A DNA stretch of 64,000 bases, taken from NCBI GenBank assembly GCA_000092065.1, contig CP000582.1; one strand, given 5' to 3'. The position numbers were made by a program, and so were the translations under genes. Positions 31,469-64,000 of this stretch are shown in pieces. Position 1 is the first letter of the stretch. The number at the start of each line of letters is the position of its first letter. This DNA comes from Ostreococcus lucimarinus (taxonomy: Eukaryota). Under the pieces are notes generated by a model. That model saw only the letters and a list, made by a program, of their open reading frames with translations, had not been told where the DNA came from and searched no databases.

Positions 31469-33217
31469 CTACCAGCGACCGAGCGCCATGCCCATGACGC
31501 CGACGAGACCTGCGGCGTAGGATGCGACGGCGGCGGTCTTTTGTTGGCGATCGTAAAAGTTCGCCCCGCGCTTACTCACGGCGACGACGAGTTCTCTCGT
31601 CGTGTTGTTCGGCTCGATGCCGCGCTGCAAGAGTTCGTCGTACACCTCCACCGCCTTGTCGTAATTACCGGCGATGTCCGCGGCTTGGATGAGCGTGTTG
31701 TACGTGTGCACGGTGTGCTCGACGTCGTACAACTCCTTCATCTCGGTCGCGATTTTTGAGCACTCTCGAAAGTTGCCCTCGCTCGCGGGACCGAGCATCA
31801 AGCCGACAAAGGTGTAGTCGTCTGGCGGAATACGCCGCGCGAGCATTTGCTCGAACACCTTGCGCGCTAGATCAGTTTTCCCACTTCGTCCGTACGCCGA
31901 AATCAGCGTGCTATACGTCACGCGAGAGGGCTGAATGTTGTACAACTCTCGCATGTCTCTAAATAAAACCTCCGCGCGCTGCCACTGCGTGCACTTGCCC
32001 AAAACGCTGAGGACAATGTTGTGATGTATCTCCTTAGCCTTTCCTTCGCTCGTGAGCTGATTGAGCAAGCGCACCGCGCGCTCCCACTGCAAACTCTTTT
32101 CGTACGCGTGCAACATGGCGCTATACGTGTGGTCGTTCGGCGCCGGTCCGTCGCGACGCATGTCCTCGAACAAAGCCTCGGCGAGCTTCCAATCCATCGC
32201 CTCAGCGTACGCCTTCATGACCGCCGTGCACGTGAAAGTCGTGCGAGGCACGCGCGTGAAGGTTTCTATCGCCTCTTCGTAGTTCCCACATCGACACATC
32301 GCCGTCATGTAATCCACGTACAGCTTGCTATCCGTCGCCCGCCCGCTCGACTCGATGGCTCGCAACATCGCCCTCGCGTTGTCTTCGCTCCCCAAAACCC
32401 CGAAAGCGCTGATGAGCGCCGACGCGATCGCCAAGTCCGGTTCCACGCCATCGCGTTTCATCTCTGGAATCAACTTCACCACCGCGCGCGCCCCCGCGCG
32501 CCCGCCGTTCGCCCCGGCTCTGACCAACGCGCTGTACGTGTGCGCGTTTCTCGCCGTCCCCGCGCGCTTCATCTCCCCCAGCATCCCCAGCGCCTCCTCC
32601 CACCGTCCAGCGCCGTCCAGCGCTTGCACGCACGTCGTATACGTGTGCGTCGTCGGCGCCACCTCTCGCGCGTCCGCGCTCCGTCTTTTCATCCACTCCA
32701 GCGTCGCCAACGCCTTATCCGCGTCTCGCGCGCGCGTCGCCAACGACATCATCGTCGTGCACACGTGCGCGTTCGGCCACACCTCAGAGTCATCCGCCGT
32801 CATCGCGTCGAATATTCCGCTCGCCACGTCTCGCGCGCCTTTCGCGCCTCGCTCGCGTCCGACGCGCTTCAGCTCTTGTATCAACCACGTCGCCGCGCCG
32901 CGCTCGAGCGCCGTCGACGCGCCTCGCGCCCCCTCCTCCTCGCGCGCGCGCCTCGCCGCGCGATCGCGCGTCCGCGCGCCGTCGACGAGTCGCTCGACCT
33001 CGTCGTCGACGTCTCGCGCGCCGTCGCGCGCGTCGCGCGCGTCGCGCGCGTCCGCGACCGCGCGCGTTCGCGACGACGTCACGCGACGGCGGCGCGTCGC
33101 GCGCGCGCCGCCGCGCGCGTCGCGCGCGCGCGCGGGCGACGACGACGCGCGCGACGTCCGCGCGGACGTCGACGCGCGCGCCGACGCGCGCGGCGCGGAC
33201 GCGACGCGCGCCGACAT
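31469..33217 (-). CDS. pentatricopeptide-repeat (PPR) protein, organelle RNA-binding
   Basis: ATG at 33217 (minus). Ser/Arg/Ala-rich presequence, then more than 10 degenerate 35-aa helical repeats of PPR type (...HTYTTCVQALDGAGRWEEALGMLGEMKRAG, NAHTYSALVRAGANGG, DHTYSAMLHAYEKSLQWERAVRLLNQL, TYSTLISAYGRSGKTDLARKVFEQM, HTYNTLIQAADIAGNYDKAVEVYDEL). Confidence 0.7.
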   Translation of the reverse strand: MSARVASAPRASARASTSARTSRASSSPARARDARGGARATRRRRVTSSRTRAVADARDARDARDGARDVDDEVERLVDGARTRDRAARRAREEEGARGASTALERGAATWLIQELKRVGRERGAKGARDVASGIFDAMTADDSEVWPNAHVCTTMMSLATRARDADKALATLEWMKRRSADAREVAPTTHTYTTCVQALDGAGRWEEALGMLGEMKRAGTARNAHTYSALVRAGANGGRAGARAVVKLIPEMKRDGVEPDLAIASALISAFGVLGSEDNARAMLRAIESSGRATDSKLYVDYMTAMCRCGNYEEAIETFTRVPRTTFTCTAVMKAYAEAMDWKLAEALFEDMRRDGPAPNDHTYSAMLHAYEKSLQWERAVRLLNQLTSEGKAKEIHHNIVLSVLGKCTQWQRAEVLFRDMRELYNIQPSRVTYSTLISAYGRSGKTDLARKVFEQMLARRIPPDDYTFVGLMLGPASEGNFRECSKIATEMKELYDVEHTVHTYNTLIQAADIAGNYDKAVEVYDELLQRGIEPNNTTRELVVAVSKRGANFYDRQQKTAAVASYAAGLVGVMGMALGRW

Positions 33218-58510: not shown

Positions 58511-59131
58511 ATGTCGCGCGCCGACGGCGACGCGCTCGAGACGCGTCGCCTGTTCGGCGGCGCCGTCGTCCTCGACGTCCCGAGGCGGTTTCGCGATCTC
58601 TCGAGCGTCGTCCCGGTGCCCGACCACCAAGAGGTGTTCGCCGACGGCGCGCGCGACGAGACGCTCGTCGTCGAGCTCGTCGACGCGATCGCGCGCGAGG
58701 GCGAAGATTTGCGCGCGTTCGCGTTCGCGGACGCGTGCGAGGAGATGGAAGCGTCGAGCGCGACGTACGTGCGCGGACGCGAGCGCGCGCGAGGCGAGGA
58801 CGACGCGCGCGGGCGCGGGACGAGCGAGACGCACGTCGCGTACGGCGTCGCGCGCGTGCGACGGTCGCGAGAGACGAGCGCGAACGATATTGATTTGTGG
58901 GGCGGAATCGTGCGCGTGGCGTCGAAACGAACGGACGCGTTGATTTGGCACGCGCGACCGTTCGCGTTTGACGGCGACGCGACGACGCCGGGAGGGGAGC
59001 GCGCGAGACCGAGCGACGCCGACGCCGTGCGCGCGGGCGCCGTGGAGTGCTCGGACGTGTTAGACGCGGCGTTGAATTCGTTCGAGATCGTCGATTGGGG
59101 GTTATTCGGCGACGAGGCCGGCGAAGGGTAG
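58511..59131 (+). CDS. MOG1: Mog1/RANGRF-like Ran guanine-nucleotide release factor (PsbP-fold)
   Basis: ATG at 58511. N-terminal Mog1 block RRLFGGAVVLDVPRRFRDLSSVVPVPDHQEVFADGARDETLVVELV (human CPLFGGAFSAILP...DLRPVPDNQEVF...DQSLIVELLE). Confidence 0.65.
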   Translation: MSRADGDALETRRLFGGAVVLDVPRRFRDLSSVVPVPDHQEVFADGARDETLVVELVDAIAREGEDLRAFAFADACEEMEASSATYVRGRERARGEDDARGRGTSETHVAYGVARVRRSRETSANDIDLWGGIVRVASKRTDALIWHARPFAFDGDATTPGGERARPSDADAVRAGAVECSDVLDAALNSFEIVDWGLFGDEAGEG

Positions 59132-59271: not shown

Positions 59272-61185
59272 ATGTCCTTATCACTCGATCCCGCGCGTGA
59301 ACGCGACGTTTTCGTTGAATGGGTGCGAAAGATGCACCTCCGCGCGCCAATCTTGCCGCCCGCGTACGTCCCGTACGACGACGCGAAGGCGGTGAGATCG
59401 CCGCGGGCGATCGCGCGTGATGCGCTGCTCGCGTTCGGTGCGGCAGTGAAGATCGAAAAGCTGCGCGATGGAGACGAGGACGCGGACGGGACGGAAAGCG
59501 AGACGACGAGCGGGACGACGACGGAGACGCTGTATAGAATCAAGGCGACGACGTCGCGAGGGTTAGAGTTGTTCGATAGCGACGTCACGGGCGTACCGAG
59601 ACGAGTCGTTTTGAACGATGAACACTGTGACGTGACGCGTGGGGTGGAAGTGGCGCTGATGAATATGGCGGCGGGGGCGCGGTGGCGCGCTCGATGCGAC
59701 TGGAGCGCGACGTACGGACACGACACGGCGAAGGCGCGAAGGTTGATCCCAGACCCGCGTTTGCGCGAGGGAGATGCGATTATATACGAGCTGGAGGTGG
59801 TGAACCGCATGCCCGTTCACGTGGTGCGCGTTCGAGAGCTTGAAGATGGATCCTCGGTGGCGCTCGCCGGAGGCGGTTGGGCGAGATGCACGAAAAAGAC
59901 GACTACAAGTGGAGGCGGGTGGGAGACGCCGAGACCACCTTTTGAGGTGACGATAGAGACTAGCGCGATGTTGGTGAAAGGTAAAACGAAAACGGGCGAC
60001 GAGCACGGTGAAGATGAGTTTATGGAGAAGAGGGTGGTGAGTTACGTTGTCGGAGACGGGCGGGTGCCGCTGGCGCTCGACGCGGCGGTGCGTACAATGC
60101 GCTTGAACGAAGAGGCGTTAGTGTGGAGCAACTACAGCGGATTCGGCAAAAACGTCACAAAGGCGTCGAAGCTTCGACGACTGATTCCGGCGCTTCCGAG
60201 CGATGGTTCCGAGCCCCTTCACGGCGTGGCGTACAAGGTGAAACTCGCGGCGATGCGACACGTGCGAGACGTCTTTAACGACGGCACGACAAAGAAGACA
60301 CGAACGCGCGAAGGTTTGGGCCAGTTCCCTTCTGACTGTCCCATGAATGATTGCATGGTGCGTGTGCACTTCATCCTGTCCACCGCGACAGCGATTGGCG
60401 CGCACAGCTCCTTGGCAGAGCGCTACGACACGCGCTCTGACGCTTCGTTGAAAGGCGCGCCATTCGAGTTTCGTCTCGGTTGTGGAGCGCTCCCTGAAGC
60501 TGTGGAAACGTCGATTCGCTTGATGATTCCAAAAGAAGAATCACGCGTAGTTCTCGACTTGACACTTGGCGAAGAAGCTCGTCAGCGAGGATACGGCGCG
60601 AAGAATTGTCGTCCAGACGCGCCGGGGAGCAAGTTCGGCGTCGTCGCGAACCTCGCCATGATTCAATGGGACGTCGTTCTCGAATCGTTCGACGCGGCTG
60701 TGAATTGGTATCAAGCAGATGTGAGCGACATGCTCGAAGAGGCGTTGTTGATCAAAGAAGAGGCGAATGCACTATTCAAGACGGAGGTGTACGAACTCGC
60801 GCGAGCCAAGTACGAAAAGACGCTCCACAAACTTGAGAGTCTTCGAGGGTTAGAGTCTAGCGATTTCGATCGCGTGGAAGCGATGAAATGTACTCTTGCG
60901 CTCAATCTCGTGGCAAGCTTACAGAAACTCCACCGACACGTCGACGCTCTGAAGCGAGTGAACAAGATTTTGGACTCGGATCCGGTGAACGCCAAGGCGT
61001 TGTTTCGACGATCTGTCTCCTACCTCGCCCTTCACGAGTTTGTCGCCGCGCGAGACGATTTATTCGCGTGTTTAGATGCGAATCCTAGCTTACAGAGCAC
61101 CGTAGCGAAACAATTGGACTTAGTCAAGCGCACCGAGGCGCAAGAACTCGAGTGCGAGCGCGCCGTCTTTCGAGGCAAATTCTAA
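59272..61185 (+). CDS. FKBP-type peptidyl-prolyl isomerase-like protein with C-terminal TPR repeats (FKBP62/PAS1-like)
   Basis: ATG at 59272. Degenerate FKBP domains (GVEVALMNMAAGARWRARCDWSATYG, VPLALDAAVRTMRLNEEALV, AVETSIRLMIPKEESRVV), then three TPR units (EEANALFKTEVYELARAKYEKTL, KCTLALNLVASLQKLHRHVDALKRVNKILDSDPVNAKALFRRSVSYLAL, EFVAARDDLFACLDANPS). Confidence 0.65.
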   Translation: MSLSLDPARERDVFVEWVRKMHLRAPILPPAYVPYDDAKAVRSPRAIARDALLAFGAAVKIEKLRDGDEDADGTESETTSGTTTETLYRIKATTSRGLELFDSDVTGVPRRVVLNDEHCDVTRGVEVALMNMAAGARWRARCDWSATYGHDTAKARRLIPDPRLREGDAIIYELEVVNRMPVHVVRVRELEDGSSVALAGGGWARCTKKTTTSGGGWETPRPPFEVTIETSAMLVKGKTKTGDEHGEDEFMEKRVVSYVVGDGRVPLALDAAVRTMRLNEEALVWSNYSGFGKNVTKASKLRRLIPALPSDGSEPLHGVAYKVKLAAMRHVRDVFNDGTTKKTRTREGLGQFPSDCPMNDCMVRVHFILSTATAIGAHSSLAERYDTRSDASLKGAPFEFRLGCGALPEAVETSIRLMIPKEESRVVLDLTLGEEARQRGYGAKNCRPDAPGSKFGVVANLAMIQWDVVLESFDAAVNWYQADVSDMLEEALLIKEEANALFKTEVYELARAKYEKTLHKLESLRGLESSDFDRVEAMKCTLALNLVASLQKLHRHVDALKRVNKILDSDPVNAKALFRRSVSYLALHEFVAARDDLFACLDANPSLQSTVAKQLDLVKRTEAQELECERAVFRGKF

Positions 61186-61238: not shown

Positions 61239-61829
61239 CTAAACAAAGTATTTCGCCATCTGAATCTCCTTCCTCACGTATCCGCATCGCTCATAAAATC
61301 CGGCGTTTGCCTCCGAGCAGTCCAGAATCACCTTGTAACAACCGGCAAACTCCGCCGCCTTCGTCAACGCTTCAATGATTACCCTACCCAGATCCTTGCC
61401 TCGTTCGTTCGAATCCACCACTACGTCTTCAATGTGTCCACACGTCCCGCAATTCCGCGTAAACTTTCGTTCGAGCAGCAGCGTCCCGCTCGCCACCACG
61501 CGCGTCCCGCACGCGCTCTCGATCACGTACACGTACTCCGGGCCATCCGCGATCGCGCGGAAGCGACGCTTAAAATCGCCCTCGCCGACCGTGGTGAGTT
61601 GACTCAGAAGTGCGCGGAAGCCCTTGCGGTCGTCGTCGGCGCGCAATCGGCGCACGGTGATCGGGGAGGCGTCGGGACCGGCTTTATGGTTAGTCACTCG
61701 GAGTCGCCTGGGCGGCGCCCGGAGCGAGTCCCTGATGCGGTTGATGCGCCGGAACAGCGCGCTGGTGAACAAACCGAGGACGAATGTGAAGGAGCCGCGC
61801 TTGGAGACGTACATGGCGGCACCGGACAT
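61239..61829 (-). CDS. GNA1: glucosamine-6-phosphate N-acetyltransferase (GNA1, GNAT family) with N-terminal hydrophobic segment
   Basis: ATG at 61829 (minus). Aligns with human GNPNAT1: RRLRADDDRKGFRALLSQLTTVGEG ([24 protein letters not shown]), CGHIEDVVVDSNERGKDLGRVII ([23 protein letters not shown]), GCYKVILDCSEANAGFYERCGY ([22 protein letters not shown]). Confidence 0.8.
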   Translation of the reverse strand: MSGAAMYVSKRGSFTFVLGLFTSALFRRINRIRDSLRAPPRRLRVTNHKAGPDASPITVRRLRADDDRKGFRALLSQLTTVGEGDFKRRFRAIADGPEYVYVIESACGTRVVASGTLLLERKFTRNCGTCGHIEDVVVDSNERGKDLGRVIIEALTKAAEFAGCYKVILDCSEANAGFYERCGYVRKEIQMAKYFV

Positions 61830-61947: not shown

Positions 61948-63360
61948 TTAGGGCTGCGTCGATTCTACGTCGTTTTCCGCGAGGTCGTCGTCGCCGATGC
62001 ACTTGATGGAGCCGCACCAAAGCCCGCCCGCATCGTCGTCGATGTACAGCTCGAGCGCGGCGGAGATCAGGACGAAGGCTGAGCTCGCCCAGAAGCATGC
62101 GGCGAAACCTTCGACGGTGGAGCCGACGTAGGAGTAAAGCGCGCCGCTAATGATGGTGCCTATGAGTCGGCCGAATGCGTTGGCCATGTAATAAAAGCCG
62201 ACGTTTATCGCCACCTTGTTTCCGTCGGCGTACTTGACCACCAAGTAGGAATGAATGGCTGAGTTCACGGCGAATAAATACGCGAAGACGAAGACACCGA
62301 CAAAGATGACGACCGTTTTCGTCGTCGTCGCGCCCGAATGGTTTTGAAACGCGCTCGATTGTATGAAACCACCGAGGAAGAGCGGTACGCTCACCAGCGC
62401 CACGTTCCAAATCACCGCCACGTGCTTGTTCGGCGGATTTTGATTGAGCGGTTTGAGAAACAGTTGCGGCGTCCACGCTTGCAACTGCCCGTAAACGATG
62501 ATATAGCCCGCGAGAAGCGCACCGACGGCAGAGCGCGGCCAACCCATTCCCTCGGCGCTTCGCAAGAAGAACGGCAGCGGCACCTCAAACCACAAATCTC
62601 GGCTCCCGAACAAAAACATCCGACTCAGCGAGAGAATGTTCATATTATAGCTTTGTTTAAACACCGTACTCATGGTGATGTTCGCCTTCGCCACTCGACC
62701 GAGGGAATTATCCAGTCCGAACACCGCGAACGGTAACGCCGCGGCGACGAGCGCGATTTGCATCCAAAGCGCCGCCTCGTAACTCACCCCGAGCATCGCC
62801 GCGCCGATGAAGTACCCCACCCCCTTAAAGCTATTCTTCAATCCGGTGATCGCGCTCACGAGCTTGAATAACGACTTTTGCTTATCCTCAGGCGTCACGA
62901 GTTTCGTCACCGTCTTCCCTCCCAGCTTCGTCAAGTCCTTCGCGACGCCGCAAATCGCCTGCGCGACGGTGACGAACGCGATCGCCTCGCGCTTCGACCA
63001 CCCGTCGTCCCACGCGAACAGCATCCCCAACCCCACCACTTGCAATCCCAGCCCCGCGCACAGCGTCTGTCGCACCCCAAATCGCGCGCCCGCGACGCCG
63101 GCGCACAGATTCGTCGCCGCGCCGCACAATTCGTACAGCGTAAACATCGTCGCCACCTCCATCGCCTCGAACCCTCGCGCGTACGCGTGCATGAGCACCA
63201 GCATCCGCACCGCGCCGTCCGTCATCGTAAACAGAACGTATGAGATGGAGATCACCGCGAACGGACCCAGGAACGTTTTCTTCGCCTCGCGCGCCGCTCG
63301 TCCGTCGTCCATCGCGCGCGCGCGCGTCGCCGATGCGGCGTCCGGTCGGCCGTCCGCCAT
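61948..63360 (-). CDS. major facilitator superfamily permease of bacterial type (possibly ArsJ-like organoarsenical efflux family; unverified)
   Basis: ATG at 63360 (minus). 12 predicted TM segments in 6+6 arrangement with central loop. MFS motif-A-like GVAGARFGVRQTL between TM2 and TM3; N-terminal block YVLFTMTDGAVRMLVLMHAYARGFEAMEVATMFTLYELCG. The ArsJ assignment is from memory of that family and needs a database check. Confidence 0.6.
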   Translation of the reverse strand: MADGRPDAASATRARAMDDGRAAREAKKTFLGPFAVISISYVLFTMTDGAVRMLVLMHAYARGFEAMEVATMFTLYELCGAATNLCAGVAGARFGVRQTLCAGLGLQVVGLGMLFAWDDGWSKREAIAFVTVAQAICGVAKDLTKLGGKTVTKLVTPEDKQKSLFKLVSAITGLKNSFKGVGYFIGAAMLGVSYEAALWMQIALVAAALPFAVFGLDNSLGRVAKANITMSTVFKQSYNMNILSLSRMFLFGSRDLWFEVPLPFFLRSAEGMGWPRSAVGALLAGYIIVYGQLQAWTPQLFLKPLNQNPPNKHVAVIWNVALVSVPLFLGGFIQSSAFQNHSGATTTKTVVIFVGVFVFAYLFAVNSAIHSYLVVKYADGNKVAINVGFYYMANAFGRLIGTIISGALYSYVGSTVEGFAACFWASSAFVLISAALELYIDDDAGGLWCGSIKCIGDDDLAENDVESTQP

Positions 63361-63570
63361 CGTCCGCGAAACGTCCTCGCGCGGCCAGCGATCGCGCGTT
63401 TCCGGCGCGCGCGCGCGAGCGAGAAATCACCGCCCGCGCGCCCGCGCGCCGCGCGACGCGCGCGTCGAGCGCGCGTCCCGCGCGATTCCGGCGCGCGTCG
63501 AGAGGTGAGGAATATTCCCGTCGAACTTCGTAACGACTCGAATCGTCACATCGCGACGACTTCTCGAGGC

Positions 63571-64000
63571 ATGCCGCGCGTGCGCGCGCTCGCGGACGCG
63601 CGCGATCTGACGAATAAAATCGTTCTCGTCCGCGTCGATCACAACTGCGTGAAGCGCGGCGTCGTGCGCGACGTGCACAGGATCGAACAGTCGCTGCCGA
63701 CGCTGTACAACATCGTCGAGCGCGGCGGACGACCGATCCTGATGACGCACGTCAATCGACCGCGAAGCGCGAAGACGGGGGAGATCGCGCGCGATGACGA
63801 CGAGGACGGCGTGGCGGCGATCGTGGACGTGCTGCGGATGAAACTGGGGGTGACGTTCGCGGCGCCGAGCTTTCGAAGCGACGGCGCGCGAGGGATACGA
63901 AGCGTGGACACGAGCGTGAACTTCTTGCTGGACGATCTGCGAGCGCGGAGGATCGGAGGGATATACCTGCCGAACACGCGGTGGTTCGAGGGCGAAGAGG
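63571..64000 (+). CDS. phosphoglycerate kinase-like protein (divergent PGK N-domain), 3'-truncated by window end
   Basis: Not in ORF track (no stop before window end). ATG at about 63571; frame open to 64000. PGK N-domain blocks with substitutions: KIVLVRVDHNCV (PGK: KRVFVRVDFNVP), RIEQSLPTLYNIV (RIRAALPTIKYLL), ILMTHVNRPR (VLMSHLGRPDG), GGIYLPNTRWFEGEE (ILLENLRFHVEEE). The 3-PG-binding Arg/His/Arg positions appear retained. Confidence 0.55.
   Translation, partial: MPRVRALADARDLTNKIVLVRVDHNCVKRGVVRDVHRIEQSLPTLYNIVERGGRPILMTHVNRPRSAKTGEIARDDDEDGVAAIVDVLRMKLGVTFAAPSFRSDGARGIRSVDTSVNFLLDDLRARRIGGIYLPNTRWFEGEE

Follow-up and report, generated by a model that had tools for sequence, protein, structure and literature searches.

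Why would an alga keep a gene of the phosphoglycerate kinase (PGK) family back to back with a gene for an ArsJ-like permease? The question is raised by the end of a 64,000-nucleotide stretch of the Ostreococcus lucimarinus genome (GenBank assembly GCA_000092065.1, contig CP000582.1; hereafter the window, meaning the whole stretch analyzed), where a minus-strand gene for a major facilitator superfamily (MFS) permease and a plus-strand PGK-like gene diverge from a short intergenic region. A reading of the sequence alone, here called the original prediction, had taken this pair for a possible arsenate-handling module, in which the permease would export 1-arseno-3-phosphoglycerate and the PGK-like partner would act on 1,3-bisphosphoglycerate (1,3-BPG) or its arsenate analogue. 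We consider it probable that O. lucimarinus has here its orthologue of a published green-algal ArsJ-type neighborhood; the PGK-family protein, PGK4A, would serve as an ATP-driven helper, and the genes would be induced through a promoter element of the P1BS type. The features on which this reading draws are as follows.

61948 to 63360, minus strand: open reading frame (ORF) of an ArsJ-like MFS permease, 470 amino acids (ORF list, Pfam MFS_1, NCBIfam MFS_ArsJ)
63361 to 63570: divergent intergenic region common to the ArsJ-like and PGK4A genes, 210 bp, GC content 0.71 (sequence)
63509 to 63518: palindrome GGAATATTCC with core GAATATTC, 54 bp before the start codon of PGK4A (matches the P1BS consensus)
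63571 to 64000, plus strand: 5' part of PGK4A, 143 of 464 codons (XP_001416265.1), the gene running past the window end (ORF, Pfam PGK)
Contig L001, 7271 to 8314, beyond the window and about 80 bp past the PGK4A stop codon: GAPDH3, 347 amino acids, tail-to-tail with PGK4A (contig L001, NCBIfam)

A GAPDH/ArsJ-type gene pair with a PGK-family gene between

Both ORFs of the divergent pair were confirmed, with the permease ATG at 63360 on the minus strand and that of the PGK-like gene at 63571 on the plus strand, and the shared intergenic region, anticipated at roughly 210 bp, measures exactly 210 bp from 63361 to 63570. The RefSeq permease (XP_001416507.1, O. lucimarinus CCE9901; 100% identity over 454 amino acids) begins instead at Met17 (nucleotide 63312), which widens the gap to 258 bp; the true start may thus be at 63312 or at 63360, and the exact promoter length would vary with it. 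Start calls also vary across other Ostreococcus annotations, from 455 to 475 amino acids. Beyond a match to Pfam MFS_1 (residues 38-366, E 6.8e-14), the permease aligns with nearly the whole NCBIfam profile MFS_ArsJ (NF033734; positions 3-389 of 392, E 7e-117, 390.9 bits, equivalog cut-off 400 bits), the sole NCBIfam family that it matches at E <= 0.01. No solved structure was matched by its sequence at the same threshold, and a Kyte-Doolittle count of seven strong transmembrane peaks was too crude and was not used as evidence. Judged by these matches the permease is ArsJ-like, and the similarity, which the original prediction had called its weakest link, is strong.

The bacterial label first given to this permease needs some qualification: the ArsJ model match stands, but every one of the 120 best homologues is eukaryotic. 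They span green and red algae, diatoms, a haptophyte, Mesostigma and hemichordates, with the O. tauri orthologue (P0252, at the ostta02g02850-70 locus) at 80% identity and the best Chlamydomonas reinhardtii homologue at 59%. The hemichordate homologues, from Ptychodera, Saccoglossus and Glandiceps, have 56-57% identity.

Several public contigs carry the permease sequence, and these were used to recover the full-length PGK-like gene and its neighbors. About 1.7 kb from the permease start they hold a GAPDH gene, with PGK4A the sole gene between; GAPDH3 and PGK4A converge, and PGK4A and ArsJ diverge. The contig L001 copy of GAPDH3, which alone among the GAPDH copies was scored against G3PDH_Arsen, the NCBIfam model of ArsJ-associated GAPDH (NF033735), reached 461 bits against a cut-off of 450. 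Of the cut-offs of the remaining GAPDH models, it exceeds that of generic type I by a narrow margin and stays below all others. The motifs GINGFGRIGR, SCTTNC and TTVHN, including the catalytic His, are retained. Because the permease matches the ArsJ model and GAPDH3 stands above its cut-off with intact motifs, the locus holds, as far as its predicted proteins tell, a bona fide pair of the GAPDH/ArsJ type that encloses a gene of the PGK family. The arsenate-module inference of the original prediction is supported, and given the adjacent ars-type GAPDH it was too cautious.

The published neighborhood and its conservation in relatives

A green-algal "ArsJ-type" arsenic-detoxification neighborhood was described by Foflonker and Blaby-Haas (Mol Biol Evol 2020; PMC7826186), with ArsJ, a bacterial-like GAPDH3 and a noncanonical PGK (PGK3 or PGK4A) as its members. 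In that study, C. reinhardtii insertion mutants of arsJ (Cre07.g354150) and pgk3 were severely impaired on arsenate, PGK4A adjoined ArsJ and/or GAPDH3 in Mamiellophyceae, and in Chlorophyceae it was PGK3, of another subfamily, that stood beside ArsJ and GAPDH3. Its supplement lists ostta02g02850 (ArsJ), 02860 (PGK) and 02870 (GAPDH3) for O. tauri, with the canonical PGK elsewhere as ostta06g00700; O. lucimarinus is not among the ten genomes analyzed. The module thus exists, but it has been in the literature since 2020, with mutant support from Chlamydomonas, and O. lucimarinus adds one orthologue to it; the expectation of a previously undescribed eukaryotic variant did not hold.

The authors described the enzymatic role of the module PGK as unknown and PGK4 as untested, and hypothesized that 3-phosphoglycerate (3PGA, or 3-PG) is recycled to glyceraldehyde-3-phosphate (G3P) (PMC7826186). 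Our literature search found nothing specific on PGK3 or PGK4 function in later work. The main text of that paper contains none of the terms cysteine, active site, catalytic, phosphate starvation, Desulfo-, Nitrospir- or Deltaproteobacteria, and the residue analysis, the bacterial distribution of PGK4 and the P1BS observation presented below are additions to it. They bear on the question it left, namely the role of the PGK and when the module operates.

The pairing is kept in related algae, as the original prediction had asked to see. On O. tauri chromosome 2, GAPDH converges on PGK, which diverges from the MFS gene across 243 bp, and two further Ostreococcus contigs have the same three-gene order, with intergenic regions of 145 and 206 bp. 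Bathycoccus prasinos retains the divergent PGK/MFS pair (intergenic region 260 bp), with no GAPDH within 21 kb of it. In three Micromonas-like contigs the order changes, PGK converging on a GAPDH gene that diverges from the MFS gene, and the flanks are wholly different. Co-localization is thus seen in three arrangements across Mamiellophyceae, Bathycoccus contributing PGK4A and ArsJ only, and a trio that outlasts rearrangement argues against passive synteny.

PGK4A is most likely a working but divergent kinase

The window holds the first 143 codons of the plus-strand ORF, from the ATG at 63571 to the window end, and this part alone matches Pfam PGK (E 9.6e-17, profile positions 4-119). The PGK homology seen originally in the N-domain extends to the full-length protein of 464 amino acids, recovered from contigs with an identical permease, which matches PF00162 at positions 4-377 of 379 with 261 bits; XP_001416265.1 and the metagenomic copy on contig L001 are identical at 462 of 464 residues. 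An AlphaFold2 (AF2) model of the full protein (pLDDT 86.7) has a complete two-domain PGK fold, and Foldseek comparison of this model with solved PGKs, to which PGK4A has 24-30% identity, gave target-normalized TM-scores of up to 0.88.

The substitutions that had drawn attention to the gene, RVDHNC for RVDFNVP and THVNRP for SHLGRP, are present in the sequence, and a third block is changed from DAFGxAHRAH to DAFGS-WQAH, where AHR is replaced by WQ with a deletion of one residue. Counterparts of Arg38, His62, Arg65 and Arg122 are retained, and so are those of Lys215/219 and Asn336 together with GGGDT and TGGG. The numbering, and the assignment of these residues to nucleotide binding and phosphotransfer or to the 3-PG patch, are what we take to hold for human PGK1. 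Four of the five residues of the basic 3-PG patch are kept; the exception is Arg170, which binds the phosphate of 3-PG in PGK and whose counterpart is Gln in 120/120 sequences. AGAKxDTK, VNAVMG, GGGDT and FTGGG show no variation among the 120 PGK4 clade members. With this pattern of residues, PGK4A is most likely a catalytically intact but divergent phosphoglycerate kinase.

The unusual blocks had been read as the mark of a neofunctionalized paralogue. They prove instead to be invariant features of an old PGK subfamily that algae share with Desulfobacterota and Nitrospirota: RVDHN, PNxRWF, NDAFGSWQ and VNAVMGxT are unchanged in all 120 best PGK4A homologues, which include proteins of about 436 amino acids from these two phyla at 54-58% identity. 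In a scan of one genome per species, at least 583 prokaryotic species genomes carried a PGK4-type gene, mostly Desulfobacterota and Nitrospirota. No neighbor of the bacterial genes is strongly conserved, the best occurring in 14 of the 83 sampled loci, and in seven the PGK4-type gene has a phosphofructokinase gene about 100 bp behind it in the same orientation. These findings mark PGK4 as an old, tightly constrained PGK subfamily with an ancestral role of its own, possibly ordinary PGK activity, which joined the arsenate module in algae only. That two PGK clades, PGK3 and PGK4A, came to stand beside ArsJ and GAPDH3 suggests that what the module requires is PGK chemistry of a generic kind.

Two other searches concerned the history of the gene. 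Transfer of the intact trio from bacteria was considered and dropped, as 0/83 bacterial PGK4 loci contain ArsJ or GAPDH. A scan of viral contigs, prompted by prasinoviruses that carry a phosphate transporter, found no PGK4-type genes.

Cysteines specific to the algal lineage

Mamiellophyceae PGK4A differs from its bacterial and streptophyte homologues in a set of cysteines. C294, C296, C303, C456, C462 and C464 are invariant in 37/37 proteins from this class, the first three in an insertion with the pattern GCGC-x7-C and the others in a C-terminal tail with the pattern C-x5-C-x-C, and of the 83 homologues from bacteria and streptophytes, 81-82 lack the two segments. Two more cysteines are specific to the lineage (33/37), C234 and, within the active-site block RVDHNC, C26; the other sequences have Val there. 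Of all these, C26 is the only one encoded in the window, at about 63646-63648. In the AF2 model the cysteine segments reach pLDDT values of about 76-80 and 55-75, which is moderate to low confidence. A metal-, metalloid- or redox-sensing role of the cysteines is possible but speculative.

A P1BS-type palindrome in the cluster promoters

When would such a module be expressed? The intergenic region contains the palindrome GGAATATTCC, whose core octamer GAATATTC agrees with the consensus of P1BS, GNATATNC. Across the 64 kb of the window, 0.48 exact copies of the octamer would be expected and two are present. The second copy, at 32810, lies inside overlapping long ORFs without the 10-bp palindrome and was set aside as chance.

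The octamer recurs in the orthologous PGK4A/ArsJ intergenic regions, 40 bp upstream of PGK4A in O. tauri, 48 bp upstream in a second Ostreococcus lineage (contig L092) and 158 bp upstream, or 96 bp from the ArsJ start, in Bathycoccus. It also lies upstream of GAPDH3 in three Ostreococcus lineages, about 32-90 bp from the start, so that distances from start codons range overall from 32 to 158 bp. Copies of the full palindrome GGAATATTCC are found at the following positions.

Window: 63509-63518
Contig L001: 7178
Contig L089: 5017 and 7797
Contig L092: 5644 and 8236
Contig L090: 9898

Within each Ostreococcus locus of 12-17 kb, GAATATTC is found nowhere but at the PGK4A/ArsJ and GAPDH3 promoter sites, and the sequence around the motif is barely alignable between orthologous intergenic regions. 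Altogether the octamer is present in seven cluster promoter regions, about 1.7 kb in total, where the window density predicts about 0.03 copies, a figure that is an estimate and carries no formal probability as the species (three Ostreococcus lineages and Bathycoccus) are related.

Two further observations connect the motif with phosphate. In Bathycoccus a PHO4 phosphate-transporter gene lies two genes from the PGK4A/ArsJ pair, and its main exon is preceded, at a distance of about 90-150 bp, by three tandem copies of GGAATATT(C) (L090:4550-4610). The phosphate-regulated HAPT promoter of O. tauri has a P1BS at -76 (PMC3236181), and the O. tauri annotation includes a psr1 gene. Taken together, the motif data suggest phosphate-starvation control of PGK4A/ArsJ in Ostreococcus and Bathycoccus and of GAPDH3 in Ostreococcus, presumably through binding of a PSR1/PHR1-type factor at GGAATATTCC. 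We also observed an SBP-domain gene just upstream of the PHO4 gene in Bathycoccus prasinos (OZ116902.1, contig L090).

A proposed arsenylation cycle

Building on the observed gene identities, arrangement, conservation, residues and motif, we infer the enzymatic and regulatory steps in Ostreococcus as follows. By homology to the bacterial system, GAPDH3 would use arsenate in place of phosphate and convert G3P to 1-arseno-3-phosphoglycerate, which the ArsJ-like permease would export and which would break down outside the cell. PGK4A would re-activate 3-phosphoglycerate with ATP, yielding 1,3-BPG, for which we envisage two routes. In the first, a published hypothesis, 1,3-BPG would be reduced to G3P (PMC7826186). 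The second is our own suggestion: 1,3-BPG would re-acylate GAPDH3, and arsenate would attack the acyl-enzyme thioester. Its premise is that arsenolysis of 1,3-BPG by GAPDH is classical chemistry, and the route would sum to 3PGA + ATP + As(V) -> 1-arseno-3-phosphoglycerate, with no net redox change. The P1BS-type palindrome would induce the module at phosphate starvation, when high-affinity phosphate transporters admit arsenate; induction under phosphate scarcity makes sense because that is the route by which arsenate would then enter.

Several observations weigh against this proposal. The permease scores 9 bits below the ArsJ equivalog cut-off, and with the Arg170 counterpart lost, the substrate of PGK4A could differ from 3-PG. 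The mutant data concern ArsJ and PGK3, a different PGK clade, in Chlamydomonas, not PGK4A or Mamiellophyceae (PMC7826186). Neither an ArsJ nor a GAPDH homologue flanks the PGK4-type gene at any of the 83 sampled bacterial loci, and the PGK4A genes of streptophytes are likewise unlinked to ArsJ and GAPDH3 (PMC7826186), which implies some other ancestral role for PGK4. As to regulation, none of the three Micromonas-like loci has GNATATNC in an intergenic region between cluster genes; elsewhere in these loci it is found once in L008, about 300 bp upstream of PGK4A, and not at all in L091 and L094. Literature searches returned nothing specific about expression of the Mamiellophyceae cluster genes when phosphate is low or arsenate is present, and nothing on the enzymology of PGK4-type proteins.

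Three other explanations of the locus were weighed, and each is less likely than the proposed ArsJ-type module with PGK4A as its helper. The one that survives best, improbable as we judge it, holds that PGK4A of Mamiellophyceae was neofunctionalized for arsenic, going beyond the mere production of 1,3-BPG: it would either bind or chaperone the labile 1-arseno-3-phosphoglycerate on its way from GAPDH3 to ArsJ, or have its activity switched, via its lineage-specific cysteines, by As(III) or the redox state. The six invariant cysteines of all 37 proteins, placed in segments nearly absent from other homologues, would fit such a role, as would the lineage-specific C26 and C234, the lost Arg170 counterpart and the confinement of ArsJ/GAPDH3 linkage to the cysteine-bearing clade; moreover, triads of CxC plus Cys resemble the As(III) tri-thiolate sites of ArsR and ArsD. 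However, the nucleotide-binding and phosphotransfer residues are all invariant, which points to a working kinase, and the correlation between cysteines and linkage comes from one clade and hence from one event in evolution. Besides, the model of the cysteine segments is of moderate to low confidence, and Chlorophyceae employ another PGK clade, which again points to generic PGK chemistry.

We think it unlikelier still that the cluster is a carbon-metabolism unit for phosphate starvation, composed of two enzymes of lower glycolysis and a transporter for a phosphorylated C3 compound, with arsenate resistance as a side effect. This idea was itself raised as a naive hypothesis in PMC7826186. It would account for two genes annotated as glycolytic, for the phosphofructokinase gene after the PGK4-type gene in seven bacterial loci, for a promoter motif of phosphate-starvation type that is not specific to arsenic, and for a PHO4 gene only two genes away in Bathycoccus. 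Yet GAPDH3 passes the ArsJ-associated model and misses the others save, narrowly, generic type I, the permease is without an NCBIfam match besides ArsJ, the Chlamydomonas arsJ and pgk3 mutants are arsenate-sensitive (PMC7826186), and a canonical PGK is encoded elsewhere in O. tauri (ostta06g00700). That PGK4A is a bystander, adjacent to ArsJ by inherited synteny in compact genomes, we regard as very unlikely: the flanks (GNAT, FKBP/TPR, Mog1, Serinc and Cupin_8) are indeed syntenic too between O. lucimarinus and O. tauri, and neither bacteria nor streptophytes have their PGK4 homologues linked to ArsJ and GAPDH, but the trio was kept through three rearrangements with fully changed flanks in Ostreococcus, Bathycoccus and Micromonas-like contigs, a rare palindrome is common to the PGK4A and GAPDH3 promoters, and in Chlorophyceae it is another PGK clade that lies beside ArsJ and GAPDH3, with an arsenate-sensitive mutant (PMC7826186).

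Returning to the ArsJ-type module with an ATP-driven PGK4A, we tentatively extend it for Bathycoccaceae, though we doubt that the extension holds in full: the module would belong to the PSR1/P1BS regulon via GGAATATTCC, and the two cysteine triads acquired by PGK4A would bind As(III) or a metal or sense redox state. If true, the arsenylation cycle would be redox-neutral, with PGK4A as its regulated step, driven by ATP. The new leads from this locus are modest, comprising the P1BS-type palindrome, the alga-specific cysteine triads and a large bacterial PGK4 family unlinked to ArsJ. A phosphate-starvation element would link arsenate detoxification with phosphate scarcity in abundant marine picoalgae, a link of relevance to oligotrophic surface waters, where arsenate and phosphate compete for uptake, and the bacterial PGK4 family and the alga-specific cysteines offer concrete targets for enzymology.

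Genomic surroundings of the locus

The GC content of 62001-64000 is 0.62, equal to that of the remaining window, and base composition thus gives no hint of a recent transfer. Near the permease lie genes for a GNAT acetyltransferase (61239-61829, minus strand), an FKBP/TPR-like protein of 637 amino acids (59272-61185, plus strand) and Mog1 (58511-59131, plus strand); their order is identical in O. tauri, and this chromosome stretch is thus broadly syntenic. Long ORFs run over the permease in other frames, for example 62807-63508 on the plus strand (233 amino acids) and 62888-63430 on the minus strand (180 amino acids), and are stop-poor frames usual in GC-rich DNA, not genes. The neighborhoods in O. 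lucimarinus and O. tauri showed no ArsR-type regulator and no further ars gene. A scan of the intergenic region for sigma-70 promoters and terminators, which is irrelevant for a eukaryote, returned nothing.

Comparison with known systems

The bacterial counterpart, as summarized in PMC7826186, is the gapdh-arsJ pair of ars operons, known from Pseudomonas aeruginosa DK2 (Chen et al., Mol Microbiol 2016), in which GAPDH arsenylates G3P to 1-arseno-3-phosphoglycerate and ArsJ then exports the product. As far as that summary describes it, the algal locus shares with this pair an ArsJ-family MFS gene beside an ars-type GAPDH gene, and presumably similar chemistry. In contrast to the bacterial arrangement, the algal locus is a eukaryotic nuclear one, with separate promoters, no operon and an extra PGK-family gene, and its permease lies 9 bits under the ArsJ equivalog cut-off with its nearest relatives among eukaryotes.

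Compared with P1BS, the element of PHR1/PSR1-type MYB-CC factors, the motif described here is an exact fit to the consensus, palindromic and promoter-proximal, and it is found upstream of Bathycoccus PHO4 as well, whereas the Micromonas-like loci lack it between their cluster genes. With canonical PGK (PF00162; Thermotoga maritima 1VPE, human PGK1), PGK4A shares the fold, a full-length match and the nucleotide and phosphotransfer residues, but it differs in its low identity of 24-30%, in clade-invariant substitutions and in extra segments that include the cysteine-rich insertion and tail. The closest known system is the neighborhood of PMC7826186, with which the O. lucimarinus locus shares all three gene families and the algal class, and with whose O. 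tauri representative, ostta02g02850/60/70, it is syntenic.

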